A stretch of 64,000 bases of DNA from an uncultured Nitrososphaeraceae archaeon (GTDB lineage Archaea > Thermoproteota > Nitrososphaeria > Nitrososphaerales > Nitrososphaeraceae). Below the pieces are notes generated by a model. That model did not search any database. It worked only from the letters and a program-made list of their open reading frames with translations, and had not been told where the DNA came from. The stretch covers positions 128,001 to 192,000 of the forward strand of contig CAVZZA010000003.1 of the NCBI GenBank assembly GCA_963779615.1, written 5' to 3'. Of this stretch, positions 7 to 20,536 are shown piece by piece. Both the position numbers and the translations under genes were made by a program. Each line of letters begins with the position of its first letter. The first letter of the stretch is position 1.

Positions 7-683
7 CTATTTTACCTTTAGGGTAAGCTCTTCTCCGTAGCCTATAGGAACAGTGACAGACGTAACGAGTTCATTGTCTCCAATGTATTTAACATACTGA
101 GACATTGTTGACCTGTATTCCTCCGGGTATAAAATATTGTCCGTCACAATAAATCCCCCCTTTTTTAATAATGGTAGTGTCAAATCAAAATATTTGGTTA
201 GGTTTTCTTTGTCCGCGTCTAAAAAAACAAAATCAAACAAATTATCACTTCCATTCAGGGTTGTGCGATGATTGTCGGATAATTGAACAGGACATCTAAA
301 GCATTGCCCTCTATGATTTTTATTAGATCATGTACTTCTGCATCTGCAAAGTTTTTTTTGGCTCTTTTAATCTTTGATGGATCCTTTTCTATGGTAATAA
401 TGCTCTTTTTTACTTTTTGTGGCAAAATATTTTCCGTTTGAGACAACGCAAGTGCGAACCACAGGGTAGAATATCCGGCAGAGGTGCCAACCTCAAGGAT
501 TTTGTTTGCATTCATGGATGTTAACAGCATGTTCAGAAACCTGCCTGTGTCTTTGGTGATTGCGAGCATTAACTCGTTATCCGAAATGTTTGCTTGCCCT
601 GACCGCTCCAATCTTGATTGTCCCTCTAACCTATCCATCACAGTAATTATTTTTGAATGATTGTGAAAATTATCGGGGCACAT
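7..683 (-). CDS. SAM-dependent O-methyltransferase (Methyltransf_3/YrrM-like), split by one frameshift near 285
   Basis: ORF 255-683 has ILEVGTSAGYSTLW and TIEKD; ORF 7-240 has FDFVFLDADK and GGFIVTDNIL. Adding one base at TTCAA^TTA joins them (LF-K-LSDNHRTTLNGSDNLFDF). Confidence 0.8.
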
Positions 684-3245: not shown

Positions 3246-3686
3246 ATGAAAAAGCTGTTTACCCTGAGAGGTATTGTTACCATTGGAATAATAGTCCTTT
3301 TGGGATCAACAACGATTGCCGAAACGACCTTTAGAGAAGCATTTGCGCCTAACAACGGTCGAGCTGCCATATCCGCCATCACAGGTGACAACGTCTACGT
3401 AGCATGGTGGACAAACACGACAGCCAACAAAAATGAAGATGTTTTATTTAGAGCATCTACGGACGGAGGAAATACCTTCAATGACAAGATTAACTTGAGT
3501 AACTCACCCACCTCCAATTCATCAAGGGTAGAGATAAGCTCAGACGCAGATAACGTAGTAGTCACATGGTGGGAGGCAAATCAGACAGCTGATACACCAG
3601 TTATGCGGATAAGCAATGATAATGGATACACATTTGGGCCCGTGTTGACACTTGCTGTCAATGGAACTATTGGTGCTACCGATTAA
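3246..3686 (+). CDS. Small secreted protein with two Asp-box/BNR motifs
   Basis: Signal peptide MKKLFTLRGIVTIGIIVLLG; Asp-boxes STDGGNTF and SNDNGYTF; several N-x-T/S sequons; TATA-like CTTAAATA at ~3214. Confidence 0.75.
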   Translation: MKKLFTLRGIVTIGIIVLLGSTTIAETTFREAFAPNNGRAAISAITGDNVYVAWWTNTTANKNEDVLFRASTDGGNTFNDKINLSNSPTSNSSRVEISSDADNVVVTWWEANQTADTPVMRISNDNGYTFGPVLTLAVNGTIGATD

Positions 3687-4442: not shown

Positions 4443-5807
4443 TTGATCGACGTGAGAAACGGCCCTTTAAAGATTTTCTCGATTAGTTCTTTTCTTAGGT
4501 CAAGGTTTGACTGCAAGAGGCTTTTGGTTCTCATGCTAGTTGTGATTATCACGGTTATGCTGGATTCAGAGATTGGTTATGTTGCGGACTTCATTCCCCA
4601 GCAACTATCGTCAAACTGGGGAATTGCCTTGTTCACAAGCATAGCAATAATATTTGCAATAGCGCAATACTTTATGATAGCCAAAGCCAATCAAAGTAAC
4701 AAGGATACAAGATCTAGAGCACTTCATCTCAATGTTACGCATATCATAGTATCCGTTTCACAGTGCATCCTGGCCGGAATACTTGCTTTTGTTATTTTGC
4801 AGATATTGATGACACAGCAGTACAGCATTGTAACGCTGTATGTATCCCATGTTATTAGCTATGGACTTTGGATCATTACTTTGGGATTTCTAGCCAAAGC
4901 CTTTTTCTCCTGGTACAAAAGGTCTGAAAAAAACGTTATGGTGCTAATACTCACCTTATCAATGATTGCATATGCAGTTAACGGCGTAATAATCTTGTTT
5001 ACCTACCTCGATATCCTGACACAACAAAAGCCAATAATATCATCAATGGACGTGGCGCATTTTCCAGAATTTTCCATTGCTTCAATCGGAGGCCAGATTG
5101 CGACTGCCAATATTGCAGCTTCTAGTGCTGCTTATGTCCTTACGTGGATAGGGACCGTCAAGCTGTTATCCCCATTTATCCAAAGACTTGGAAAAATCAA
5201 ATTCTGGATGATAATGAGTGCAACCATGGTGTATTATCTCATATCATTTCCTCTTTTTGTATTGGGATATTACACCCCATCAGACGGTATAGACGCAATG
5301 ACAAACATCCTCATCTTTTCACTCGGTGGAATTTCCACAGGGATCATATTTGGAGCCGCTTTTTTATCTGTTGCAAGAACTTTGCCAAAGCAGACCGCGC
5401 TCAGAGACCATATTACAATGTCTGCTTATGGCTTTCTTCTTTTTTATATTGCTGGATCCGCTATTGCTGCTCAGGCAGCGTATCCACCATATGGACTTGC
5501 ATCACTGTCTTTCACGGGTTTATCATGCTATTTGATATACTCAGGCCTATACTCTTCAGCTGTTACCGTATCACAGGATACAGCATTGCGCCAATCAATC
5601 AGAAGGTCAGTAACCGAGCAATCAAAGTTGCTTGACAGTATAGGTACGGCTCACCTAGAGCAAGAACTACAATCGATTGTTTTGGCGATTACCAAAAAGT
5701 ATTCTGACTCGATGATGGAAGATACAGGAGTTGAGGCATCAATGACAGAAAACGACATAAAAAAGTACATACAGAGGGTTAGGGATGAAATGCAGAAGAG
5801 GTCCTGA
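4443..5807 (+). CDS. Polytopic (~10 TM) membrane protein of unknown function with a cytoplasmic helical C-terminal tail
   Basis: 454-aa ORF with repeated hydrophobic segments and tail QDTALRQSIRR...LLDSIGTA...TGVEAS...DIKKY; homologous to the N-terminal region of the kinase at 17425-20536. Confidence 0.85.
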   Translation: MIDVRNGPLKIFSISSFLRSRFDCKRLLVLMLVVIITVMLDSEIGYVADFIPQQLSSNWGIALFTSIAIIFAIAQYFMIAKANQSNKDTRSRALHLNVTHIIVSVSQCILAGILAFVILQILMTQQYSIVTLYVSHVISYGLWIITLGFLAKAFFSWYKRSEKNVMVLILTLSMIAYAVNGVIILFTYLDILTQQKPIISSMDVAHFPEFSIASIGGQIATANIAASSAAYVLTWIGTVKLLSPFIQRLGKIKFWMIMSATMVYYLISFPLFVLGYYTPSDGIDAMTNILIFSLGGISTGIIFGAAFLSVARTLPKQTALRDHITMSAYGFLLFYIAGSAIAAQAAYPPYGLASLSFTGLSCYLIYSGLYSSAVTVSQDTALRQSIRRSVTEQSKLLDSIGTAHLEQELQSIVLAITKKYSDSMMEDTGVEASMTENDIKKYIQRVRDEMQKRS

Positions 5808-5808
5808 C

Positions 5809-5858
5809 TGACTGGCATTTACAAAAGAACGCCCAATGCTTTTACAAATTGCCAGTCA
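5809..5858 (+). terminator. Imperfect inverted repeat immediately after the stop codon (possible terminator or 3' hairpin)
   Basis: TGACTGGCA(5809)...TGCCAGTCA(5858) is a perfect 9-bp outer stem, with inner AAAAG/CTTTT pairing. Confidence 0.35.
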
Positions 5859-6457
5859 TTTATATCGTAATGGTCATTTATTATATACATAGACGACATC
5901 AAGAAATAAATATACATAGCGTTACCAATTTTTTATAAATTTTATTTTTGATGTGCCTTAGCAACCCATCCCTAGTCAACAAGGCCGCTGGTATGCGATA
6001 CAGCAACCAAAACCATAAACCCGTACTTATACTTAGGAACATGAGTATATCAAACATATTCAAATAAAAAGTGTTTCAGTCATTTTTTTTACATCACTTA
6101 ATTGCATATTCACTTCATTAAATAGAAATGACGCAAATATTAGATTCAACTGGAATTCCATGAATAATTTAAGAAGTGAAGACATTTAATGGAATGAAGT
6201 CATCCAATAGAATTTTCATGGATTTGCCTTGGGAAATGTTTTTGGAGGTTCATTTAAGCCTTTAACGGGCCATTCAGTCGATACAGATATGTCACAAAAG
6301 AATAAAAAGTCATATACAACTTAATCATGTTGAACTTTTGATCAGGAATTCCACAGGTCTTTTATAGAGTCTAAATTGCAACTGCCGGGAGAAGAAAAGT
6401 GTTCAAGTAAAAAGAGTCGACATATCTATTAAATAATCCAGATTCCACATAACATAA

Positions 6458-6805
6458 ATGAGTCAACACAATTCTACGGCAAAAGAAGAAATGGACTATC
6501 CCTGCATTAGTGGTAAGAGTGTTTACGACCTTCTTGCCAAAATTCCCCTAGGGAAAGTTTCCACTTATGGCGACATAGCAAAGGCATTGGGGCATCCTGG
6601 AGCATCTAGGGCAATAGGCAGGATTATCGCAAATAACCCAAATCCGATAGTGATTCCATGTCACAGAGTTGTCAAATCTAGTGGCGAAATCGGTGGTTTC
6701 AAGTATGGTGAAAACAGGAAGAAAGAGATACTTGAAAGAGAAGGCGTTAAAATAGAAAATAGAATTGTGAAAGACTTCAAAAAGTTCAGATTTGTTTTTG
6801 AATAG
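6458..6805 (+). CDS. ogt: MGMT-family methylated-DNA-protein-cysteine methyltransferase (C-terminal domain only)
   Basis: GKVSTYGDIAKALG, SRAIG and active-site IPCHRVV. Confidence 0.9.
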   Translation: MSQHNSTAKEEMDYPCISGKSVYDLLAKIPLGKVSTYGDIAKALGHPGASRAIGRIIANNPNPIVIPCHRVVKSSGEIGGFKYGENRKKEILEREGVKIENRIVKDFKKFRFVFE

Positions 6806-7345
6806 GCAGAGTCCTTGTTTCATCCCAGTATTGAGTGATACAAGGTTGGATAATTCCAAAAGATCATGCAATTATCAACGCAAAGGATAAAGTGTGGCAG
6901 AAATCTAGGTTTTATTTTTTTCATTGGCAAAATGTAATTATTAAAAAAATTTATTTTAAAAAAAACATAGAAATTGAGTTGTTATTGCATTATGTCCATG
7001 AGTGCTTTTTTTTGGAGGCAGGCATCATTCTACTCATAGTCTAGTAACAAAATCAAGGAATGTGGACAGGCCGAATGTAATTGTCTTTTTGTTAATGGAT
7101 ATAGCAGTATGAAGGCATCCATTAGGTCATCAACTGAGAAATGAACCGACTATCCCTTGTTTTACAGGCACTCCCGCCGATATTATCAGGATGCCATAAT
7201 TTATGAGATCCTAATTTAATTTAATTTAATTTAATTTGTTTAATTTTTAATTGTTTAATTTTCTCCCAAGACACATATCATAACAATAGTTGTTTAAGAT
7301 GATAGAAAAATCTAATACTAAAAGGAAATCAAATAACAATGCTGA

Positions 7346-8565
7346 ATGGCTGACTACCCCAATTCAATTTTGATAACCCTGTTTGTCTTTCAAGTGATTA
7401 TTTTTTTTAGTTGGACATTCTTTCTAGCCTACTCCATTAAATCAATTAGGCAAGTCCCAAAACTACAATCTCCTAGAACTATTTGTACAAATACCAATTG
7501 CCCAATGGTAAGCATCATACTTCCATCAAGAAATGAAGTAAGATACATAGAAAAATGTCTTGACAGCCTACTAGGCAGGACTATGCGAATTACGAAATAA
7601 TAGCTGTTAATGACTCCTCAACAGATAGGACAGGAGAGATAATTGAAAGATATAGCAGGGCCCATAGTAAAATAATCTATGTTGATGCGGAAGAAAAGCC
7701 AAAGGGATGGACTGGAAAGAATTGGGCTTGCTATCAGGGATATCTTTACTCAAAGGGGTCCCTTTTTCTTTTCACCGATGCTGACACGACCCATTCTGCA
7801 TCGACTATTTCGTTAGCAGTTACCCATTTGATGACAGGTGGTCTTGATGCACTTACTGCAATACCCAAAATATTGGCATATGATTTTTGGACAAAGGTTA
7901 CTTTACCCGTACTTTGGACATTCTCCTTGGCCAGATATTCCGCATTAAAGGCAAATAATCCTAAAACAAAGGTAGGGTATTTTTTTGGATGTTTTTTCAT
8001 AATAACAAGAAATGCTTATGAAAAAGTTGGCACCCACAAATCGGTCAGAGAAGAAATCATAGAGGATGGGGAATTGGGGAGAAAAGTCAAAGAACAGGGT
8101 TTCAGCCTCAGGGTTGTTCATGGCGAAAAACACATAAATGCAGTGTGGGCAAGAGATCCCTCCACTTTATGGCACGGACTACGCAGACTTATGATTCCTT
8201 TGTTTAGAAAGGAGAAAATAAAGGCATCTATGATGGTTGTTGCAACATTTATTTTACTTTTGCTCCCTTTAATCATTCTACCATTCTCAGCTATAACCGC
8301 TCTAAACGGAAAGGACGCCAACATCACTACGATAAACAATTATTCAACATCATTGGTTCTGCTATTTCTTACAATAACATCCATCTTATTATCAACAGTA
8401 ACAAACATTTTACAGCTAAAGTATATGGTATTTCAAAATCTATTGTATTCACTATCTTTTCCTTTAGCAGGATCCTTTGTTTTTATTGCGTTTCTTTCAT
8501 CTATTTTTGACAGCAGAAAGGAAAATGCTGTGAATTGGCGGGACAGAAAATACTCAATCAGATAA
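7346..8565 (+). CDS. Membrane glycosyltransferase family 2, one frameshift near 7575
   Basis: VSIILPSRNE, then in a second frame QDYANYEIIAVNDSSTDRT, GWTGKNWAC, FTDAD, GCFFII, IIEDGELG and C-terminal TM helices. Confidence 0.85.
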
Positions 8566-9181
8566 CATTAAACATAAAAAATTGCCAACCCATGGCAAAA
8601 TGCAATGATGCAGAATTTTTGTTTTTGAAATGAATGCGCAGCACAATTTAGAGATAACGGCATCCAGCAACAGCAAGACACACAGTTTCCATGCCTTTTG
8701 TCGTCAAGTATTCCCTCTACCGAGCACAAAAAAAATCATGAACGTATTAATCAAATGGAAAGCAAGGTGACAGAAGGTTTGAGAAGGTCATTGTGATCTG
8801 CAGGAGGATTTTCAGATCAGCAATAAAGAGAACATGAGGAAATTCTCCAACACACCTAAAACAGTTTCGTCTAATTTGGACTAGGAGGTTTGCGGAGACG
8901 CGAAAATAAGGTGACTGATGTCATTTTGCTGAAATAGGGATTTTGGAAAAAGATGGCAGTGCCGGTTTAACATGCCAACAATTTGTGAAGGGTATTTACA
9001 CCGGTTCCCTTCTTATTAGGTGAATACACGCCTCAAGGTTTAGACTTGGCAAAGATAATGCAACTACCACCACAATAGGGATAAAACAACAACAACTTTT
9101 ACCAGAAGAAAAGCTGCTCTAAAAAAATTTAACCTTTTTTTTATGAAAGAAATTTAAATATTTGCCTACAGCAATATAATT

Positions 9182-9637
9182 ATGAAAAGTATTCATTTGT
9201 TATTGCTTTCGGTGTTTTTAATACCCCTAATGCAATCTGCCTATGCACAATCTACAATGAATCAAAGCGGTAGCCCTATTGTTAATCAACCAGCAGGTAC
9301 GGATAATCCTGTGAATAAACCTGGAGACAGGTTCGGACTCATAGAGGACACCCCTAATTACAACAAGTATATACCCAATACAGGGCCCGACTCAAACAAC
9401 GCCTTAATAGGGCCAGCACAACCATCCACTAATTCAGGCAGCGGCGGCAACGGTACCTCCAATACAGCTACTTCTAGTAACGCATCATCCAATAATTCAG
9501 GCAGCGGCGGCAACGGTACCTCCAATACGGCTAATCCAATTGGCGGAGCGTTAGCAAACACGACAAAGTCAGTTGGTGAGGCTTTGGAAAAAGGTATCTC
9601 AGGTATTATGAATCTTGGAAATAATTCTGCAAAGTAG
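9182..9637 (+). CDS. Secreted low-complexity (N/S/G/T-rich) hypothetical protein
   Basis: Signal peptide ending AYAQ; duplicated NSGSGGNGTSNTA; TATA-like TTTAAATA at ~9153. Confidence 0.7.
   Translation: MKSIHLLLLSVFLIPLMQSAYAQSTMNQSGSPIVNQPAGTDNPVNKPGDRFGLIEDTPNYNKYIPNTGPDSNNALIGPAQPSTNSGSGGNGTSNTATSSNASSNNSGSGGNGTSNTANPIGGALANTTKSVGEALEKGISGIMNLGNNSAK
9430..9528 (+). repeat. 36-bp intragenic direct repeat (2 copies, 63 bp apart)
   Basis: TAATTCAGGCAGCGGCGGCAACGGTACCTCCAATAC at 9430 and 9493. Confidence 0.9.
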
Positions 9638-10005
9638 GATGGACACGACTATCCTTATCATCAGTCACATACACAGTATTCAAGTTTAAAATCCAAACCA
9701 ATGATTCGTATTTCATAACCAAAACCTTTTTCTGATTACAAAAGGCATAATGTTAAATTACAAGAATGTCTACAAATTCAATATTTTTTGGTTCTGTTGA
9801 TTCCCTTAATATTGGCAATGAATATTTCATTGCATTTGCTTCTGATTACAAAAGAGATCTATCAATGTTAACAATGGATAACTAACATAAAGGAGAAACC
9901 AAATGATAACTAAGGTAGATATGTCTTTTTTTCCAGAACACCTGATACCCATTGTTACAAATTCTTATCGTATTGTAAAATATTCAGGGCCAAAACAGAG
10001 TAACT

Positions 10006-10527
10006 ATGAAGAAAACAACTCAAAGTAATATTAAAGGCAATACATCATTAACAGTTATGTTTGAAACATTTTTCAAAGGATACGAACTGGATTTTTTAAT
10101 TGATATTGGTATCTCCTTATTAGCGGGTTTCATCATAGGCACTGAAAGGGAGTTAAAAGGCAAGCCAGCGGGTATTAGTACCCATTCATTGGTTATAGGC
10201 GGTTCAATGATTTTTACATTCTTGTCTTCTCAAGTAGACCCAACATCCACTTCAAGAATTGCCGCACAAATTGTTTCAGGAATAGGTTTTCTTGGAGCAG
10301 GAGTAATACTTAAAGGCGAGGTTCAAGGTAAAACAGAGACTGAAATTCATCAGAGTGGCCGCAGGGTTGTGAATTTAACCACAGCAGCAAGCATATGGTT
10401 TTCTGGAGCCATTGGAATGGCTATTGGCTTTAACTATTATTTTATAGCACTTGTATCAGTTGGGTTCGTTGTTATTGTTTCACGTTTGCCAAGGTTCAGG
10501 AAAACCGATAATACAGATAATGAATAA
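10006..10527 (+). CDS. MgtC/SapB family membrane protein
   Basis: IIGTERE, AGISTHSLV, RIAAQIVSGIGFLGAGVI, LTTAASIW...AIGMAIG. Confidence 0.9.
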   Translation: MKKTTQSNIKGNTSLTVMFETFFKGYELDFLIDIGISLLAGFIIGTERELKGKPAGISTHSLVIGGSMIFTFLSSQVDPTSTSRIAAQIVSGIGFLGAGVILKGEVQGKTETEIHQSGRRVVNLTTAASIWFSGAIGMAIGFNYYFIALVSVGFVVIVSRLPRFRKTDNTDNE

Positions 10528-10633
10528 GACATATCCAAAAGTCATCCAATCCATATGGAAATCAAACTATCTTTTGAGTTTAATGATTAGCAGATAAAGA
10601 TAAAAAAAGATTACCACATTACCTAAATTGTAA

Positions 10634-11284
10634 TTGGTTTCCATGAAATGGCTTTCTTGGCTGAAAGGCAATGATAAGGCGATTATTGAAATGTTAGATA
10701 AACAGGCTGCCAATTTGGTAAAAGCAACAGCAGTTTTAGTTGAAATAATATCAGAAAGCAAGGAAGAAAACATCAACAATGAGAAAATATCCCAAATCAG
10801 GGATTTAGAACACGAAGGAGACAACATGACTCACAATTTATTTATTGTTTTGACCCAGACATTTGTAACACCGTTAGATAGGGAGGACATTTCAGGCCTT
10901 GCTAGCGCAATAGATGAAGTACTAGACTACACTGATGGAACCGCAGATAGGTTTTTGATATTCAACATAAAAAGGTCTACACCCTATATGATTGAGCTTT
11001 CCAAGATTCTCCATTCCGCAACCAATGAAATACATCTTGCGGTCAGTATGCTGAAAAAAATGAGAAACGCTTCAGAACTGACAACACACTGCATCAATAT
11101 AAAAAAGTTTGAACACCAGGCAGATGCAATATACAGAAAAGCAATTGCCGAGTTATTTGAAGAAAACAATAACGCAATTGAGATAATAAAGTTAAAAGAA
11201 TTATACGAAAATTTTGAATCTTCCTTAGATAGATGCCAAGACGTATCTGACATAATAGAAGATATTGCCCTTAAATATGGTTAG
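10634..11284 (+). CDS. DUF47 / PhoU-like phosphate transport regulator
   Basis: LEHEGD, TFVTPLDREDI, EHQAD, DRCQDVSDIIE; lies upstream of a PiT gene. Confidence 0.9.
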   Translation: MVSMKWLSWLKGNDKAIIEMLDKQAANLVKATAVLVEIISESKEENINNEKISQIRDLEHEGDNMTHNLFIVLTQTFVTPLDREDISGLASAIDEVLDYTDGTADRFLIFNIKRSTPYMIELSKILHSATNEIHLAVSMLKKMRNASELTTHCINIKKFEHQADAIYRKAIAELFEENNNAIEIIKLKELYENFESSLDRCQDVSDIIEDIALKYG

Positions 11285-11296
11285 ATATGCTAAGTA

Positions 11297-11964
11297 GGCT
11301 CTGTTAACTTAAGAGCTTATTCCGCTATTGGGGTAATAGGCAAACAGATTCAACCATTGTTTTACATGCTTTAGTTTGCATTTCTTTTTTCGGCATGGAA
11401 AGTAGTCGTCAAAGCATTCTGTCCTGTCCTTGATGTACTGCACCGTCCTTTCTATCAGGCTTTTCTCAAAAGGGGAATGCAAATGGTGTTTCAGTTTCAG
11501 GAACCTGCATGCTTGCGGATACCAGATGCCCCCCATCGGTGGAAACCGGATGCCTTCCATACCTATTTGTCAGAGATGCAATAAACCGCTCGGCAACAAG
11601 TATTGCTCTTTCAACTGACACATCAATCCGAAGGATTTACCTGTGTTTTGGCTCAATTGCAGCCCAGAGCCATATGCATTGAGAGCCAACCTTAATCTGG
11701 GTTTCATCAACAACATACCCATGAACCTTTTTTCTCCTGGTTTATAGTCTCTTTGGCTTGTGTTTTTGAATCCATTTCCAGACTGATACATGGCTCCTTT
11801 TCACAAACCTTTTCAACGCCTTTGCGGTGCTTCTATAGTAGAGACCCGGGAAGTGAAGATATAGGGAACAGGCAATATCTTTCGGTTTGGTTCTCTGCCT
11901 TCTGTATATCAATATTGCTTATGGCATAATCGCGACTATAGCTTTTTCTTGAGTTAACAGAGTC
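11297..11964 (-). mobile_element. IS6-family insertion sequence with degenerate transposase
   Basis: Left TIR GGCTCTGTTAACTTAAGA (11297); right TIR reverse-complements to GACTCTGTTAACTCAAGA (ends 11964). Flanks are GCTAAGTA/GCTAAATA (8-bp TSD, 1 mismatch). Transposase fragments SHVSVWKWIQK and KSLIERTVQYIKDRTECFDDYFPC contain stops and frameshifts. Confidence 0.9.
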
Positions 11965-12062
11965 GCTAAATATTACACCTGCAATAAATCTCATGAAAGA
12001 CGGTATGTATCAATAGAATAGAAAGATATAGTCCTCCCTTACAAGTCCAAATATATCTGGCT

Positions 12063-13079
12063 ATGGAAGAGGAAATACTATACATAACAATTGCGGCGAT
12101 ATCTACAGCCCTTTTCTTTGATTTTATAAACGGATTTCATGATTCTGCAAATGCAATAGCAACAGTTGTTGGGACCAGAACCCTCAAACCATTACATGCA
12201 GTAAGCATGGCCGCTATTGCGAATTTTATTGGCCCTTTTATTTTTGGAACAGCTGTGGCGGCAACAGTTGGAAAGGGAATCATTAGGCCTGAATTTGCCA
12301 CTACTGAAGTAATATTGGCCGGTCTAATTGGGGCAATAGTATGGAACCTAATTACGTGGTATTTTGGCCTGCCTTCTTCTAGCAGCCATGCGCTTATTGG
12401 AGGATTAATTGGTTCTGCTTTGATTTCAGGAGGCGTAAAAACTATTGTTTTTGAAGGGATTCAAAAATCACTTATTTTCATGATAGTGTCACCCACATTA
12501 GGGTTTTTAATAGCATTTATTTTTGCAATACTCCTGGTCATATTCCTTAAAAAGAAGAAGCCCCAGTTAATCAATAGGATATTTGGCAGATTACAAATAG
12601 GCTCATCTATGTTTTTTTCGTTGACTCATGGTGCCAATGACGGTCAAAAGACCATGGGTGTAATAACTGCATTGCTTATTGCGGGAGGTTTCATAAATTC
12701 TGAAGAATTTGTTGTTCCTCTGTGGGTGATGCTAAGTGCAGCAGTAGCAATTGGGTTGGGCACATTCTTTGGAGGATGGAGAATTGTAAAGACAATGGCG
12801 TTTAGGCTTACAGACTTGAAACCATATCAGGGATTTTGTGCAGAAACAGGAGGGGGGGCAATTCTTACGAGCATGGCATGGCTTGGAATACCCGTTAGCA
12901 CAACACACGCCATTTCTGGAGCAATAATGGGAGTTGGCGCAACAAGGAGACTTTCTGCGGTCAGATGGGGTGTTGGGAAAATTATTATTTATGCCTGGAT
13001 AATAACAATCCCAGCCAGTGCTGCTATTGCGGCTTTGACCTTGTTATTTATCAACAATGTTTTTGGCAGCATTTTGTAG
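12063..13079 (+). CDS. pit: Inorganic phosphate transporter, PiT family
   Basis: Signatures GFHDSANAIAT and HGANDGQK; LPSSSSHALIG and PVSTTH. Confidence 0.95.
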   Translation: MEEEILYITIAAISTALFFDFINGFHDSANAIATVVGTRTLKPLHAVSMAAIANFIGPFIFGTAVAATVGKGIIRPEFATTEVILAGLIGAIVWNLITWYFGLPSSSSHALIGGLIGSALISGGVKTIVFEGIQKSLIFMIVSPTLGFLIAFIFAILLVIFLKKKKPQLINRIFGRLQIGSSMFFSLTHGANDGQKTMGVITALLIAGGFINSEEFVVPLWVMLSAAVAIGLGTFFGGWRIVKTMAFRLTDLKPYQGFCAETGGGAILTSMAWLGIPVSTTHAISGAIMGVGATRRLSAVRWGVGKIIIYAWIITIPASAAIAALTLLFINNVFGSIL

Positions 13080-13813
13080 ACACCAGACAGGATTATAGAA
13101 TTATAGACATTCTCACTGTCAGGAGCATTACTTTATTTTTGATCACCAATGAAACATCTTGACATCTTTTTAAAAAAAAGATATTGCTTTTGGATTGGGG
13201 GTTTACAAGACATATCACCATATAATCTAAAAGTTTTTTATGTTAAGCCGTACCACATTAAGCAACATCATTTTAATCCCAAAAGTGACTGTTTAAACTT
13301 GACCTGCTAATTTTCATAACGGTTTTAAATCCACTTTACTTTTTGAAACAAATGCATTCTCGCATAATTACTGAAAACATTCAGATTGGTCATTGCTAAT
13401 AACAGCCTGTCATTGACCATTCTGACCTTCCAAAAATAGCAGAGGGGTAATGAAATGTGGTTACAGGTCCATTTTCAATGTACGCAAAGCATTCAAAAGT
13501 AGAAAAGCGGGGTTCAAAAAAAGGCTTATGATGATAATTGATAGGCATCATCTTAAACTAGTTTTTTCCATGACACATTTGAGGAAAAGAACGCGTGTCG
13601 CTATTCAGAGAACTCTACGATAGACAAAAGAACAATTGGAAATAAAATCTCAGAAACAAAAAATAATGAGGAAAAAGTGCTGCAACGCCAACAGCAGATA
13701 TCTCTTACACATCTTTTGGTGACACGAGAATAGGAATTAAAGTTCGATATCCTTTTTTGTCTGCTATGTGGATTTGGAGTATTTTCATCAGCATGATCAT
13801 CATCATCATCGTC

Positions 13814-13983
13814 TATATCTTCAACTTTTTTTCTTCCACTGGTTCTCCATTTATCCCTTTTTTGGCATCCATACCCCTTTTGATGGCTTCTGCATCCCCT
13901 CCCTCTTTTGCTATTTTGTCCTCTACCTCTTCCTCATCAGCTTTCAATAAGCTCTTTTTAATTTCTTCAACTTCTGTGGACAC
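13814..13983 (-). CDS. Small acidic/charged hypothetical protein, below the ORF-track cutoff (ends approximate)
   Basis: GTG start, STEVEEIKKSLLKADEEEVEDKIAKEGGDAEAIKRGMDAKKGINGEPVEEKK; may continue (VEDIDDDDDHADE) across an A-run frameshift. Confidence 0.45.
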
Positions 13984-14328
13984 CAGTATAATTATTTATT
14001 ATTGCCAAATGCAATATCTGAATTGGCTAACCTAAGGGTCAAGAAGGTGTTGCATTCTCACCAGTGCTCATAATTTACAATATCCAAAATAGATGAAATA
14101 ATAACTACAAACAACTAGAGACAAGGTCAAAAGGCCTCCTGCGTAACTATATGCATCAAAATTTGACTATTTTAAACCATAACTTGATTAAAAATCAAAT
14201 CCATTTGAGTAATGACATAGAGATATCCTTGGGGATTCAATGATGATGCCTAACCAAGGGTGATAATATTATTGCGCCAGGAAAAGGCAATTCTAATGGG
14301 TGAAAGAGTAAAACCTCTTGGATACCAA

Positions 14329-15150
14329 TTACAGTCTAAAAATACTTTTTGTATTTTTAAACATCAATAGATCACAAGATTCCCCATCAAGGCCAAGGTT
14401 TTGAGTAAGTTTAAGATAAGATGGCATGTTGCAAATCGGCCAATCGCTTCCATATAGCAGGCGATGGGGTTCCCCAACATAATGCAACAGTTCTTTTATT
14501 TTACCAATATAATGCTCCAGGGAAGACGATGTAAAGTCACCAACAATAAGGCCAGATATATCTGCGTATACATTTCTATTTTTATAAATCACTTCTTGGC
14601 AATCAACTATCCAGGGGTTTCCCAAATGGCACATAACTATTTTTAAATCAGGGTTATCAACGGCTATATCGTCTATGTTTAAGGGATGAGCGTATTTTAC
14701 TTTAGATTTGGGTGAAAATGAATCGCCTGTGTGAATCATGAGTGGATAATCAAACTCTATGCACATGTCATAGACACTTTGGTATCTCTCGTCATACGGA
14801 TAGTGATGTTCATATCCACAATAAAGTTTTATGCCCTTGATAAGACCGTCTCTTAACCATTCCCTACAGTTTTTCAAATCCTCATCAGTATGGTTATCAA
14901 TTGTAAACCCAGCGACAACCCCGATTCTATCATTTTTGCCAACATGCTTTACCAAATCAATGATTTGAGATGTTGACGGCCTGTTTACATCAACTTTGTA
15001 TGAGGAGAGCACAAGTGAATAATCAACATTGTTGTTGTCCATTGATTCAAGTAATGCGTTTAGCCTTTCATCCAATGAAAGAACTTTGTCTTCTGTCTTG
15101 TTTATTCCCTCATAATTATTTAGATGTATATGACAATCAATAATGGGCAT
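14329..15150 (-). CDS. Amidohydrolase_2 family TIM-barrel metallohydrolase
   Basis: IIDCHIH, GIKLY, IHTG, MCHLGNP, YADISG, LLYGSDWP. Confidence 0.9.
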   Translation of the reverse strand: MPIIDCHIHLNNYEGINKTEDKVLSLDERLNALLESMDNNNVDYSLVLSSYKVDVNRPSTSQIIDLVKHVGKNDRIGVVAGFTIDNHTDEDLKNCREWLRDGLIKGIKLYCGYEHHYPYDERYQSVYDMCIEFDYPLMIHTGDSFSPKSKVKYAHPLNIDDIAVDNPDLKIVMCHLGNPWIVDCQEVIYKNRNVYADISGLIVGDFTSSSLEHYIGKIKELLHYVGEPHRLLYGSDWPICNMPSYLKLTQNLGLDGESCDLLMFKNTKSIFRL

Positions 15151-15159
15151 GCGATAGAC

Positions 15160-15841
15160 CTATTTATTGCGCTCTTTGTATTCTGGGTTTAGCCATTCAA
15201 TAAAACTGGCATAATTTAGAGAACGTTCATCATAAAGGTAATTGGCGAGTAATTTAACCAATTTAAACCCATTTTTTAATTGCAAAGATAAAACTGGGTC
15301 TTTTAGTTCCCCTTTCACTACCTTTTTTGTGTATTCTTCAGCGGACATCATTTTTGCATATTTATAATAATCGTACAGCCGACCACCAGCTATCACTCGC
15401 CGTAAGTTCATCTTTATGGCTAACTCTTTTCTTGCATTATACAGCATTGTCGCTAGCCCTTTGTATCGGAAATCAGGATGCACAGAAATGTCTGCACCGT
15501 ATAAACTATCTCCAAGTGGGTCATGATTTTTAAACAGTCCCTGTCCAGTAACCTCCTGCCAGGTATGCTCTGCATACTCCGGTTTTAGGGAAACTATTAG
15601 GCTGCTGGATGAACCAACTATTTTTCCGTCAATTTCAACGCAAAACTGACCTTCTGGAAATATGCGAATGTGGTTATAAAGGAAGGATGAGGGCCATGTC
15701 ATTCCATAGGCGGCCATGTCTGCAAAGGACACGTTCTGAAGATCCACTATTTTAGGAATGTCTTCGGGGGTTACGTTTCTTAATATGATGGGTGCATTGT
15801 CATCACTAATTTTATAGGTAATGGATTTTTTTCACTCTCAT
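15160..15841 (-). CDS. GNAT N-acetyltransferase; N-terminus extends beyond the listed ORF, with a probable A7/A6 frameshift at ~15830
   Basis: FPEGQFCVE, LYGADISVHPDFRYKGLATMLY, AGGRL, DPVLSLQLKNGF; upstream in-frame IILRNVTPEDIPKIVDLQ. Confidence 0.85.
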
Positions 15842-16580
15842 ATCTTGACCCCGGTTTATTTATAATTGTTATTTTCTACTCTTAACACCATTAATTTTAC
15901 CATCAAACTAAATGAACATCAATAGAGAACATTACAACCGTTAATCCATAATAACGTAAACCAAACTCGTTTACCTCAGTCACATGTTTTATCACATTGG
16001 CTGAGCAACACCCTGCTCAAGGGTAGTGAATTTGCTTATTTAATTTTTGGTAACTATCATACCAAAAATGCAATAGTGACTACAAAATAACTTGAAATTG
16101 TTTCTTTTTGTTGTTATCAAACTGTTGGTTTCTTATTGAAAGAGATTAACATTTTTTATTGTGTATTAAATATTTAATTTAATATATTTTCATAGGTTTA
16201 TCAAGGAATTGAGGAAAGAAAAAAGAAAAATCATTTACTATAAATAATATGAACAAGGGATGATGCATTTATTAGATCAAATTCAAGAAGCTGAGTGGAA
16301 CAAAAGATGGAAAATTCTATCATTGCAGTGAAAAAAATTTTCATTAATGTTAAGCACAATAAGAAAATTAGAGGTTTTCATAAGAGCAATACTATAATGT
16401 GCTAAACCGACATTTAGGTCTCTCTGTAAAATATTCTGAAAATCAAATCATTATTTGGCATTACTAAATTAAAAAAAAATTTTCTCTCTTTTATCCATTA
16501 AAAAAAAATTAAAAAGAGGAAGATTGGATTTTTATCTATTCTTATTTTATTGTATTAAAGGTGTTTTACTAGCTATTGCC

Positions 16581-17082
16581 TTATTCGTCTGAGTTGTCGC
16601 CGCTGCTACCAGAGCCGCTTTCAGAGTCATCGTCAGAGCCGCCTTCAGAGTCGTCGTCAGAGTAGAGGAGGAGGAGGAGCCGCCGCTGCTACCAGAGCCG
16701 CCGTCAGAAGAGGCGGAAGAGCCACCGCTGCTACCAGAGCCACCGTCAGAGCCACCGTCAGAAGAGGAGGAGGAGGTGAGGGGGAGGAGGAGCCGCTAGC
16801 AGAACCTGTTGTTCCAGTCATTGTGGGTGCTAAGGAGGAGGGGGAGGAGGAGTCACTAGCAGAACCTGTTGTTCCAGTCATTGTGGGTGCTAAGCCTGAT
16901 GTTGCGTTTCCGGCTGCTGATGTTGCGTTTCCGGCTGCTGATGTTGCGTTTCCGGCTGCTGATGTTGCGTTTCCGGATGATGGAAGAATCTGTGCATTAA
17001 TCTGTGAAACCATTCCAGAAGTCATTGCTGCAATAAGAAATACTGCTGCCAAAACTCCTGCAAAAATAAAGCTATTGTTCAT
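16581..17082 (-). CDS. Secreted Ser/Gly/Asp-rich repeat protein (probable glycoprotein), two apparent frameshifts
   Basis: Signal peptide; GNATSAA repeats; duplicated LAPTMTGTTGSAS; the corrected frame gives SSDGGSDGGSGSSGG...SDDDSEGGSDDDSESGSGSSGDNSDE*. Confidence 0.7.
16780..16976. repeat. 21-bp tandem repeat (~4 copies) plus adjacent ~55-60-bp tandem duplication
   Basis: CTGATGTTGCGTTTCCGGCTG repeated from 16896; CTAGCAGAACCTGTTGTTCCAGTCATTGTGGGTGCTAAG twice, 60 bp apart. Confidence 0.9.
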
Positions 17083-17424
17083 GTAATTCTACTGTGATAA
17101 CATTCTATATAAAATGTACGCATTAAATTACACTCACTGTTTACCATGATATTTAATGATTCAAATGCTTTTCTAAATCATTTGATATAGAAAAAGTTTG
17201 TAAGTAGAGTTATTAGGGATTAGCAATCAACAAATGACCTCATTAAAAAATTAGGTTCATATGTTTTTGGGTTCAATACAGGCTATTCTTTAGGATTTAT
17301 AACTGCCTGAATCGGAAGTTATCCGGCATATTTTGGCAGTTGATTTCTTGTTTTAAATAATCTTTTTGATTATTTGTATTATTTGTATTCTTGATGTATC
17401 CAACTGAAATCTGCATTGTTTTTT

Positions 17425-20400
17425 CTATATTATTTTATTGTTGGTTAATGGTAGGCTAAACGAGAAGGTTGCCCCTTTACCATCTTTATTGTTTTCTGCC
17501 CAAATCTTTCCACCATGAGCCTCAATTATTTTTCTTGAAATATACAATCCCAACCCTATCCCGCTTTCGGATTTTGTTTCAAACTTCTCAAATAGTTTGT
17601 GTATGACAGCTGATCCTATTCCTGCGCCCGTATCCCTGATGCAAACTACAGCGAATTTGCTGTGATTGTTATTATTGTCGTTGTTAATGCCTTGGGAGGC
17701 GTGTCCATCTTTTTCTATCACTACTGAAATGGAGCCCTCTTCTGTAAATTTGAGTGAGTTGCTCAATAAATTAAAGATAACTTGGGTTATTCTCCCCTCA
17801 TCGCCACATATAGGAAAAGGATGATCTTTGTCTTTTGACATAAACTCCAATTTTATTCGGTTGTCTTTTCCTTCGATTTTGGTTTGATCTTTGAAATCGT
17901 TGACGATATCCCTAACTATATTTTCAAGGTCAAATTGAGTCATATTCATGACCAATTTCTTACTTTCTATTTTTGCCACATCTAAAATATTTTCTGAAAG
18001 TATTTGGAGCCTCTTTGCATTTCTATTTATGATGCTCACAATTTCTCTGAACTGTTTGATATTACCTCCGCTTCCCTCCTTTTTATCTTCTTGGTCTTCT
18101 TTTGACTGTATGATGGTAGACGCTGCCAAAATTATTTGAATGGGGTTACGAAGTTCATGGGCTGCGGTGTTTATAAACTCTCTCTGCATGTTGTCCATCT
18201 TTCTTAATTCCTCATTTATTTCGCGTTCATTCCACAATAGTTCAAAAGTTGACCTAAACGATTGAACACTTAGTTTGCTATTAGAGTAAATGGGAAAGCT
18301 AATTGATTCTACAAATTCATCAGCATATGGTATTTTAAGTTCGGCTCTGAAAAATTTTTCGTTATCAACTATAAACATACCTGCATACGAACTGTTGCCA
18401 TTCAATATCTGGATTTTAGGAGCATTTTTGGATATCTTTTCCAAAACATCAGAATTCTTGTTGCTCAGAGGACAGATAATTTTTATAGTGGCATCTTTTT
18501 CCTTTGATGCTTGTATCAGGTAATCAATGATTCCAAATTTGTCCACCCTCACCATTGCTTTGTCATTTGGAAGCAAAAACAAGGCTTCTTTTTTTACAGA
18601 CTTTGCTAAACCAATAAGAACATTGCGCGCTTTTTCATTGTCGGTTATTACCTCTAAAAATTGTGGCTCTATTCCTTGCTCTATCGATGATATCCTTTCT
18701 TTGGCATCAATAGCATCTTTCCACAATTCGCTGAAAATAAAACTAAAGTGACTAACGTAGGCAGGCTCATTGCTCACTAGCAAGCTTTTTATCGTCTCCA
18801 CCCCTTGTGATTCTTCTGTCTTCTCTATAGTAGCAATGAGCTCTTTATTTGATAGAGCAAAATCAATAGGCGGCATGTTGTTGACATGCCTTATTTGTAC
18901 CCCTATATCGAGAAATTTTTTGACTACGTCCGCAGAGTCTTTGTCCACAATAGTTGTGACCAATTTGATTCCCAGGTGCTCTGATTTTTCATGTTTGGTC
19001 ATGATTTTTTTGTAAAAATTGAAATAATTGTTGTATACCAACCGCAAACCGTTAGTTCTAGAACAAACTAGAAATTCATACGATGCCTCGAGAATATCTT
19101 TTCCCTTCTCCAGTATTTCGTCGATATCTTTCAGAATTTTAATCTCTTTTAACACCTTACCCAAGTACTGTTTCATATCATGTTCTGAGAGGGAAGGCTC
19201 AACTCCAGTCTGTTTCAGAAAAACAGATTGCTGGTCTTTTGCCACGTTCATCACCCTTTTCTCTATCTCCTGCTTCATATGCGGCGTTCCAACGATATCC
19301 AATAATTTGACCACCTCCAGAGTAGAACTCTTGATGGATTTCCTCAACGAGGTATCTTGAGTTGTGGATATCGCTAAAGAGTACAAACCTATGCTAAACA
19401 AATAGGTAGATAGAAACACAAGAGAGTGAGCCGCCACTCCGAATGTTTGCTGTAAAGCTGAAATCTCATTAGCGATTCCAATTGGTATAATACCCATTGC
19501 AGCTATTGCAAGGTAGTCCTTTACCCTAACAACAGACAGATTTCTTGTCGCAATAAAAAATGCAAGACCAAACAAGACACTACTCCCTATTGTGCCAGCC
19601 CTGAACATCAGCCTCAAATAAAATCTATATGGGATATCCGAGGGTAGCGAAATTATCAATCCGCTTCCTACAAGGTATAATACTAAGGGTACAGCTAAAA
19701 GAACCCAAAATTTAAAGGGGAATTTTCCCGGCCTGACTGATTTGTAATACTTTTGTAATAGAGTTGCTACTGCTAGCCATGTAAAAATATAAGGCAATGC
19801 TGCCAGATAATCCAAGTTGTTTTTTAGCGATATGAGAGAAGATGGCAAAATCCAGAGTGTGGTGGTATCCGGATTTACCACTTTGTACTGTATCTCGCCA
19901 TGGTATTTTTCAAAGGTTTCATAAATGAATGATGCCTGGGGAGTCACATTGGGCCCTGATTTTTCTTCTATGACATGTATGAATATCAGTCTTTGTATAG
20001 GCATCCTCTGTTATTGCTATGGCGAAGGTTGCAGCTGCTAGTCCCAAAAATAGTATCATGAAGTTTGCTTTATTTGATCTATACCAGGAGAAAAATTTGA
20101 AACTGACTATTCCCATTATAACGCTAGCCGCAATGGAGCTAACCACATAAACCAAGGTAGACTCGAATCGGACATTTGTGCATTTACTAAAATATTGATA
20201 GCAGTTTATGGAATTATTAAACAGTATGAATAACAATACTAAAAATAAGGAAAACTGGATTATTGCAACCGACCAATGCATTGTGTTTAGTAACTTGGAT
20301 TTTTTCCGGAGGTTTGCTGTTGCTTCCCTAACATATTCCAAAAGAATCCAAGAGCCTACCCCGTATCCTACAACTACAGTTAGCAAAAAAATTACAATTT

Positions 20401-20536
20401 CATAGGTATTGTCAAAGTACAGTATTTGACGGGTTGCTAACAAATCCAAAACAACAAGGACAATTATAACCCCTGAGGTAACAATGGGTATTTTTTTGTT
20501 ATCAATCAAAAAATTTTTGACAAAGGGATTTCTCAT
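17425..20536 (-). CDS. Membrane sensor histidine kinase (~1036 aa): polytopic N-terminal domain, soluble middle region, HisKA-HATPase_c; one frameshift near 19991
   Basis: H-box EFINTAAHELRNPIQ, N-box QVIFNLLSNSLKF, G1 DTGAGI, G2 GIGLGLYISRKIIEAHGG. ORFs 19919-20536 and 17425-20004 join by removing one base (AYTK^LIFIHV). Confidence 0.9.

Follow-up and report, generated by a model that had tools for sequence, protein, structure and literature searches.

Does a membrane protein encoded on its own represent the same module that opens a histidine kinase encoded elsewhere in the same stretch of DNA, and, if so, what might this module do? The question is raised by a 64,000-nucleotide (nt) stretch of an uncultured Nitrososphaeraceae archaeon (assembly GCA_963779615.1, contig CAVZZA010000003.1, positions 128,001 to 192,000; hereafter, the window), which encodes a stand-alone protein with ten predicted transmembrane (TM) helices, P0001, and, on the opposite strand, a kinase gene split over two open reading frames (ORFs), P0002 and P0003. 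An earlier note on this DNA had aligned the 454-amino-acid (aa) protein collinearly with the kinase N-terminus, and our comparisons bear this out for both halves. The C-terminal half of P0001 (residues 231-451) matches residues 72-289 of P0002 with 78 of 225 positions identical (35%; BLASTP E 7e-35), which reproduces the later blocks of that alignment, while the N-terminal half is matched by P0003 both in BLASTP (P0001 145-172 vs. P0003 139-166, 11/28 identical, E 4e-5) and in a tblastn-type search of the window's own genome (P0001 residues 30-195 against the 205-aa frame, E 1.6e-5). A profile of seven paralogues of this genome, including its other fused paralogue, scores positions 20-173 of the same frame at E 5.9e-21, and both halves are collinear with the genome's other copies in a multiple alignment. 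By these pairwise and profile alignments, all of them significant, the stand-alone protein and the N-terminal ~500 aa of the kinase are homologous over their whole length. The start codon of P0001 is uncertain, with GTG and ATG candidates lying downstream of the TTG (Table 1).

The shared module is covered by none of the curated family libraries searched. P0001 finds zero families in Pfam-A at E<=1 and zero in NCBIfam, in agreement with the earlier remark that it resembles no named sensor domain; across 110 members no Pfam family is common to more than 3, and variants of 581-658 aa find nothing in Pfam or NCBIfam. Sequence searches of the PDB gave nothing below E 0.5 with the module profile and nothing below E 0.25 with the middle region of the kinase. 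Literature searches returned no account of this family; supplements, which lay outside the search, might list such proteins. In a large protein collection, P0001 has 1439 homologues at E<=1e-3 among proteins near its length; the 120 listed of these are all unnamed or "hypothetical" and carry no Pfam domains, and the few organism names among them are Nitrososphaeraceae or Thermoproteota. The seven-copy profile matches 2387 clusters at 50% identity (E<=1e-3; 1562 at E<=1e-10 and 724 at E<=1e-30), and the best 150 of the 2387 comprise four of ~1000 aa, four of 563-653 aa and others of 293-491 aa. Within the family that the window belongs to, Nitrososphaeraceae according to source names, the profile matches 166 of 200 genomes, in 17 of 18 genera (162 of 196 when four genomes flagged as unpublished are set aside). 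In a sample taken across the order, 31 of 40 genomes of this family gave a match, against 0 of 160 drawn from 19 other families. Up to 8 candidates were scored per genome, and many genomes stand at 8. The window's own genome holds eight copies, six of them stand-alone (stop-to-stop frames, 419-471 aa) and two fused to a kinase, and stand-alone and fused forms, which the earlier note had described from one pair, are both present in many genomes. On the evidence of these library and profile searches, the family is so far undescribed and, among the genomes searched, confined to Nitrososphaeraceae, i.e., lineage-specific.

Table 1. Features of the two loci (window positions) and TM helices of the P0001 model (residue numbers)
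Feature	Position	Strand	Details
Stand-alone 10-TM protein P0001	4443-5807	+	ORF, 454 codons from TTG; ~80-aa three-helix tail, predicted cytoplasmic
TM1-TM5 of P0001	residues 24-46, 58-85, 94-124, 129-160, 165-193		
TM6-TM9 of P0001	residues 215-249, 251-273, 283-313, 319-338		
TM10 of P0001	from residue 352		
Kinase gene	17425-20536	-	10-TM module, tail, tandem phospholipase D (PLD)-like module, HisKA and HATPase_c; split over two frames
Kinase 3' ORF P0002	17425-20004	-	859 aa
Kinase 5' ORF P0003	19919-20536	-	205 aa
5' piece of kinase gene, TM1 to TM5	19991-20536	-	182 codons; alignment and profile match, E 5.9e-21
Single extra base shifting the frame	19990	-	Absent from both covering metagenome contigs; paralogue and orthologue alignments
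Kinase TM6 to TM10 and predicted cytoplasmic tail (P0002 72-289)	19138-19791	-	BLASTP to P0001 231-451
Tandem PLD-like module without HKD motif (P0002 285-605)	18190-19152	-	Model and Foldseek
HisKA (P0002 606-681)	17962-18189	-	Pfam PF00512, E 5.3e-11
HATPase_c (P0002 734-854)	17443-17805	-	Pfam PF02518, E 9.4e-24

The two kinase frames overlap around 19919-20004, and the frameshift, placed correctly by the earlier note at ~19991, consists of one extra base at 19990, removal of which yields a gene of 1036 codons with zero internal stops, comparable to the open frames of 997-1047 aa found in 9 of 18 same-genus genomes. The site is read straight through in a fused paralogue on the same contig (L007, 880-aa frame) and in P0392, an orthologue from the same-genus genome G038 (878 aa to the contig end), and the alignment with these two predicts one extra base directly 3' of the Thr-Lys codons. 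Contigs of four public metagenome runs were aligned to positions 19600-20400 of the window: position 19990 is not reached by those of runs X1 (100% alike) and X2, and the two contigs that span the base, from run X3 (216 nt, 5 other differences) and run X4 (4111 nt; 35 differences over 801 nt), each omit exactly one letter there. One uninterrupted kinase frame is, therefore, missing from this assembly and present in P0392 and in the X3 and X4 contigs. Of the earlier suggestion that the frameshift is an error, the part that stands is that close relatives lack the extra base, which may be an assembly error or a mutation of the strain.

That the break is no assembly error, and that the window copy is a true pseudogene or is expressed as two pieces, falls in our estimate a little short of an even chance. 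The genome contains an excess of split genes, with sensors seemingly over-represented among them: 3 of its 8 family members are split (the window kinase, the paralogue kinase and the tail of one stand-alone copy), and HisKA and HATPase_c lie in different frames in 5 of its 27 HisKA kinases, whereas four long housekeeping genes occupy single frames (ileS, 1095 aa; valS, 799 aa; leuS-like, 1064 aa; rpoB, 1123 aa). The extra base at 19990 also lies outside any long homopolymer, and degraded copies of the family occur in the one-contig relatives G012 and G032. Pulling the other way, overlapping same-strand frame pairs (open frames of at least 100 aa, overlap of 10-200 nt, different frame) amount to 388 over the 3.12 Mb of this genome (124 per Mb) vs. 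30 in a 0.4 Mb sample of a one-contig relative (75 per Mb), a genome-wide surplus that fits residual indel errors, as does an assembly completeness of 92.5% at 5 contigs; the remainder of the kinase gene is intact once the single base is taken out, and the break is absent from the contigs of two other samples (95-98% alike) and from the G038 orthologue. In the paralogue kinase the split is one extra base between HisKA and HATPase_c, relative to the 99%-identical P0125. Split kinases or family members of the window's genome (G000) are found, for example, at C5:513713-514377, C4:304304-305208, C5:7849-8770, C4:171720-172374 and C3:946983-947679.

The AlphaFold2 model of P0001 (110-sequence alignment; pLDDT, the predicted local distance difference test, 91.3; predicted TM-score, pTM, 0.90) has ten TM helices, and together with hydropathy it upholds the earlier count of about ten. 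TM10 extends unbroken up to residue 397 as a single helix, after which come two more, at 402-428 and 436-453. Over the 110 sequences, Lys plus Arg residues average 1.8-2.6 in the N-terminus and in loops 2-3, 4-5, 6-7 and 8-9, against 0.03-0.56 in loops 1-2, 3-4, 7-8 and 9-10; by the positive-inside rule, the module is N-in/C-in, a predicted topology that places the tail in the cytoplasm, as a kinase fusion requires. A homodimer prediction for P0001, made without control predictions, scored 0.00 and has no weight either way.

Eighteen columns are at least 90% identical in the same 110 sequences, at a mean column identity of ~30%. Eight of them are D41 in TM1, Y127, W157, W235, L242, P261, F307 and G330; of the others, three lie in the outer loop before TM10 (P348-P349-G351), two in TM10 (G368 and A373), two in its cytoplasmic continuation (D379 and R383) and three in the tail (A403, Y442 and E449). 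D41 is nearly invariant (93% of rows), Q107 in TM3 is conserved, and both belong to a set of conserved polar or aromatic residues in the outer half, along with Y127, S139 and the YPPFG loop before TM10. Conservation is densest in TM10 and the tail, which hold the best-kept motifs of the family (G368, Y370, A373, D379, R383), as expected if that part transmits. The kinase-type subfamily is distinguished by a 23-column insertion in the outer TM5-TM6 loop and by the loss of PP from the YPPFG loop.

Comparison of the 10-TM model with the PDB by Foldseek gave nothing at E<=0.001, the best rows being transporters at insignificant values (E 0.045-1, TM-score 0.1-0.15). In the exhaustive VIA-align search, 50 of the 50 best rows are seven-transmembrane (7TM) proteins, nearly all aligned on residues ~120-390 (TM4-TM10); the best is Ste2 (Z 12.7, root-mean-square deviation (rmsd) 4.6, 244 residues aligned), and further rows include adhesion G-protein-coupled receptors (GPCRs), microbial rhodopsins, AdipoR2 (Z 10.3) and ACER3 (Z 9.1). 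The model may, with a borderline score, be described as TM1-3 followed by a seven-helix TM4-TM10 bundle arranged like 7TM receptors. Since Z values below ~13 are, according to the tool, common in helical bundles, "3 + 7TM" describes an arrangement and does not prove homology. The Pfam, NCBIfam and Foldseek searches returned no characterised sensor or transporter family at a significant score, and the one resemblance found, this borderline likeness in predicted fold, fits a receptor reading.

Some of the same features would also suit a small-solute or ion transporter or channel, with fused forms acting as "transceptors" and stand-alone forms as permeases with a regulatory tail: the number of helices, a nearly invariant acidic residue in TM1 together with conserved Q107, several paralogues per genome and the transporter identity of the top, though uniformly insignificant, Foldseek rows; transporter-kinase fusions exist elsewhere. 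We regard this possibility as quite improbable, given that neither Pfam nor NCBIfam returns a transporter family, that an internal 5+5 repeat is undetected (hhalign of the N half vs. the C half, probability 0.3%), that the top 50 VIA-align rows include zero transporters, being 7TM receptor, rhodopsin or PAQR-type folds throughout, and that the most conserved part is the cytoplasmic tail, not a membrane-embedded site.

In its C-terminal part, P0002 scores 42.8 bits with PF00512 (cut-off 26.9) and 84.4 bits with PF02518 (cut-off 26.4), in the order of class I kinases, and its HisKA match includes a His, with E-L-R-x-P directly after it, that varies hardly at all among 63 rows; this H-box pattern with its phospho-acceptor His is known from class I sensor histidine kinases, and by its HisKA and HATPase_c matches the window kinase is assigned to that class. 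Ahead of this core, residues 285-605 of P0002 are modelled as two PLD-like domains (pLDDT 89.4, 63 fused relatives), for which Foldseek against the PDB finds vaccinia F13 (E 4.1e-12), PLD (1.4e-10) and PLD3 (1.5e-10), as well as PLD4, PPK1, NucT and TrmBL2 (E 1.1e-7). The HxKxxxxD motif is absent from this region in 63 of 63 rows (the pattern appears in 3 of 63, only at positions 860-874, outside the module), and the tandem module is therefore probably catalytically dead.

This PLD-like module, which Pfam and NCBIfam do not recognise, has 24 matches in the window's genome, with HisKA and/or HATPase_c matches directly downstream. At least eight of its open frames (810, 750, 736, 754, 589, 576, 634 and 521 aa) contain no hydrophobic segment, and one of 775 aa has a single such segment at the start of its stop-to-stop frame. 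It looks like a second undescribed signalling domain of the lineage, and the fused gene, judged by domain matches, is a 10-TM module and tail set ahead of a kinase type that is otherwise soluble. The earlier note had argued, in the manner of a Rosetta stone, from the fusion to a signal-input module whose tail couples to a kinase; the occurrence of the PLD-like module in soluble kinases sharpens this argument by naming candidate partners, though without proving it. As for the proposed tail-to-kinase link itself, what holds is that a conserved tail, cytoplasmic by its predicted topology, joins the kinase part, while direct contact with the kinase core does not, owing to the ~310-aa tandem PLD-like module in between. 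PLD-like sites in the genome include C3:110281-111270, C3:1100501-1101442, C3:457631-458572, C3:991580-992512 and C5:592010-592810, among others.

A search with the fused paralogue returned 290 proteins of 484-1540 aa; among the 120 listed, 79, with lengths of ~950-1050 aa, have HisKA and/or HATPase_c, and one entry bears the name of a Candidatus Nitrosocosmicus hydrocola sensor histidine kinase. The P0001 query for longer proteins, limited by a word-based search, gave one fused protein only (P0124). To trace the history of the fusion, a FastTree phylogeny was built from 397 profile-hit proteins, 376 of which cover the module; with 21 partial and 169 near-redundant sequences left out, 207 rows remained (165 stand-alone, 31 with a C-terminal extension of at least 300 aa and 11 with one of 100-299 aa). 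One clade of 46 leaves (support 100) contains 27 of the 31 extended forms beside 10 stand-alone ones; outside it are P0124 and P0271, both kinases (support 99), and one further form. The extended forms require a minimum of 10 state changes on the tree, an upper estimate since some "stand-alone" rows may be contig-end cuts, and more than one fusion or fission event is likely from this topology. P0124 (1050 aa) is kinase-fused with a module of stand-alone type, and its outer TM5-TM6 loop holds four tandem copies of an eight-residue acidic repeat. A third architecture is seen in P0167 and P0178 (645 and 649 aa, from 25- and 49-kb contigs), in which the kinase-type module and tail are followed by a different C-terminus, a ~170-aa region with a low-complexity stretch and a small conserved end that matches no Pfam or NCBIfam family.

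Taken together, we favour, with moderate confidence, the reading that the 10-TM region and its ~80-aa cytoplasmic tail form a self-contained, lineage-specific membrane input (sensor) module. We infer that a signal acting on the outer face, or inside the membrane, would shift TM10, which could carry the change unbroken into the cytoplasmic helix with the best-conserved motifs and on to the three-helix tail. Where the module is fused, its final tail helix runs into the tandem, apparently dead PLD-like module ahead of the HisKA/HATPase_c core, and autophosphorylation would be under the control of the 10-TM module in cis. The more numerous stand-alone proteins have the same tail and would most likely pass their state to a cytoplasmic partner, for which the soluble kinases of the same genome with a PLD-like module are the best candidates. 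Coupling of the stand-alone members to kinases in trans is a tentative step, one we would sooner doubt than accept. Equally speculative, and on the unlikely side, is the fuller proposal that the stand-alone proteins are GPCR-like receptors with a 7TM core that signal in trans, via the tail, to soluble pseudo-PLD kinases in a two-protein system found only in Nitrososphaeraceae. If true, the fused kinases would be the covalent version of a two-protein receptor-kinase system, and the multiple paralogues of a genome would make up its repertoire of receptors for various signals from the soil.

Several observations weigh against a sensor module. The 7TM likeness is borderline by the tool's own yardstick and without a counterpart in Foldseek; most members are stand-alone, and the kinase link may apply to one subfamily only; no conserved gene neighbour in the own-genome neighbourhoods points to a pathway, and of the 6 stand-alone paralogues only 1 has a kinase within 5 kb; the splitting of 3 of 8 members fits dispensability as well as assembly error. 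Finally, the cytoplasmic PLD-like module could be the real sensor and the TM part its anchor. In its full form, this last objection makes the TM module a mere anchor or scaffold, serving localisation or oligomerisation, with the stand-alone proteins in an unrelated, structural role, and it draws on the position of the PLD-like module between tail and HisKA and on its presence by itself as the N-terminal region of many soluble kinases, where it can serve kinases that have no TM module. We nevertheless deem it improbable: anchors are rarely so large or so conserved, whereas here the near-identical columns extend to the YPPFG loop of the outer face; several paralogues per genome represent a diversification typical of receptors; and fusion to, or fission from, a kinase has probably occurred more than once on the tree.

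P0001 is located between unrelated genes, a weakly Tli3-like ORF upstream and a methylguanine methyltransferase downstream, and the window kinase between a GNAT/amidohydrolase pair and small unknown ORFs. The upstream ORF (146 aa, window 3246-3686, + strand) comes near the type VI secretion system Tli3 immunity family (26.0 bits, cut-off 27), probably by chance. No REC domain is found within 40 kb of either fused kinase, which makes both of them orphan kinases. Elsewhere in the genome, three stand-alone paralogues are gathered within 27 kb (C3:672243-699122), one of them ~3-4 kb from a kinase (C3:693822-694547) and a REC gene (C3:693385-693726). In the rest of the window, adjacent genes for an MgtC family protein, a PhoU_div (DUF47) protein and a PHO4-type phosphate transporter lie at 10006-13079 (+ strand). 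The segment 50001-52000 has a GC content of 0.45 vs. ~0.36 elsewhere, with no tandem repeat and with ordinary ORFs (glyoxalase-like and YetF-like, a short-chain dehydrogenase nearby). Rfam gave zero matches in the window.

According to a published account (PMC5847659), ammonia-oxidising archaea have many kinases and response regulators, and their sensing is almost wholly uncharacterised. Being large, multi-copy, present in nearly all sampled genera of this soil lineage and not found in the 160 sister-family genomes, the 10-TM family counts as a lineage-defining membrane protein family with a direct and repeated link to two-component signalling. Defining the 10-TM and pseudo-PLD modules would name two unannotated regions in hundreds of archaeal kinases and would yield concrete receptor and partner candidates. 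With its 7TM likeness at the level of the fold, the family is one more example for the debate on GPCR-like folds among archaea (PMC13581589).

The closest comparison among known systems is HisKA_7TM (PF16927), with which archaeal HisKA/HATPase_c kinases likewise begin in a polytopic membrane module. In the ESM Atlas, both forms of our protein sit beside unnamed Nitrososphaerota clusters, and the nearest named cluster is HisKA_7TM (0.82 for the stand-alone and 0.76 for the fused form, values below the tool's meaningful level). Compared by hhalign over 116 columns, the 10-TM family and 12 HisKA_7TM domains from the phylum line up in a PPxG loop that each has ahead of its last TM helix, at a probability of 2.7% (E 0.017), too low to place the 10-TM family in HisKA_7TM. 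The PF16927 model itself, which finds 11 of 301 genomes of the phylum, hits 0 of 110 members at E<=1 and gives 0 matches in the window's genome. The 10-TM family differs from HisKA_7TM in its ten helices, its conserved 80-aa tail, its mostly stand-alone occurrence and the PLD-like spacer before HisKA. A 7TM-type membrane module in front of an archaeal histidine kinase is already on record in section 6 of PMC5847659, and archaeal 7TM kinases and GPCR-like folds are under recent discussion in PMC13581589. The earlier proposal of a new membrane-receptor family thus stands as far as the family itself is new to the libraries and yields as to its kind, already known in archaea: the novelty lies in the family, within a known kind of system, and no new principle is involved.

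On the seven helices of 7TM receptors (the class D GPCR Ste2, adhesion GPCRs, microbial rhodopsins), TM4-TM10 of the model superpose at borderline scores (Z 12.7-8.7; 200-244 residues aligned; rmsd 4.1-5.3 for most rows), likewise oriented N-out/C-in, and a cytoplasmic helix comes after the last TM helix; the family differs by three extra N-terminal helices. Microbial rhodopsins bind retinal through a Lys in the last TM helix, and the 7TM hydrolases of the PAQR, adiponectin-receptor and alkaline ceramidase type have a conserved His/Asp metal site. Both sites were looked for: over the 110 sequences, no TM10 column conserved at 50% or more is a Lys, and no column conserved at 80% or more is a His, so the family fits neither rhodopsin nor PAQR chemistry. 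These archaea are not known to have G-protein partners. The middle region of the kinase, in turn, has the duplicated fold of the Phospholipase D superfamily and of the TrmBL2 C-terminal domain (Foldseek E 4.1e-12 to 1e-7) and is set apart by the missing HxKxxxxD, by its escape from Pfam and by its kinase-proximal position in many kinases. For the stand-alone members, which may signal to a separate protein, sensory rhodopsin, like other receptor-plus-transducer pairs, offers an analogy, as a 7TM-type protein that signals to a separate transducer feeding a histidine kinase; sensory rhodopsin and its transducer couple within the membrane, whereas in the 10-TM family the contact would be made by the cytoplasmic tail.

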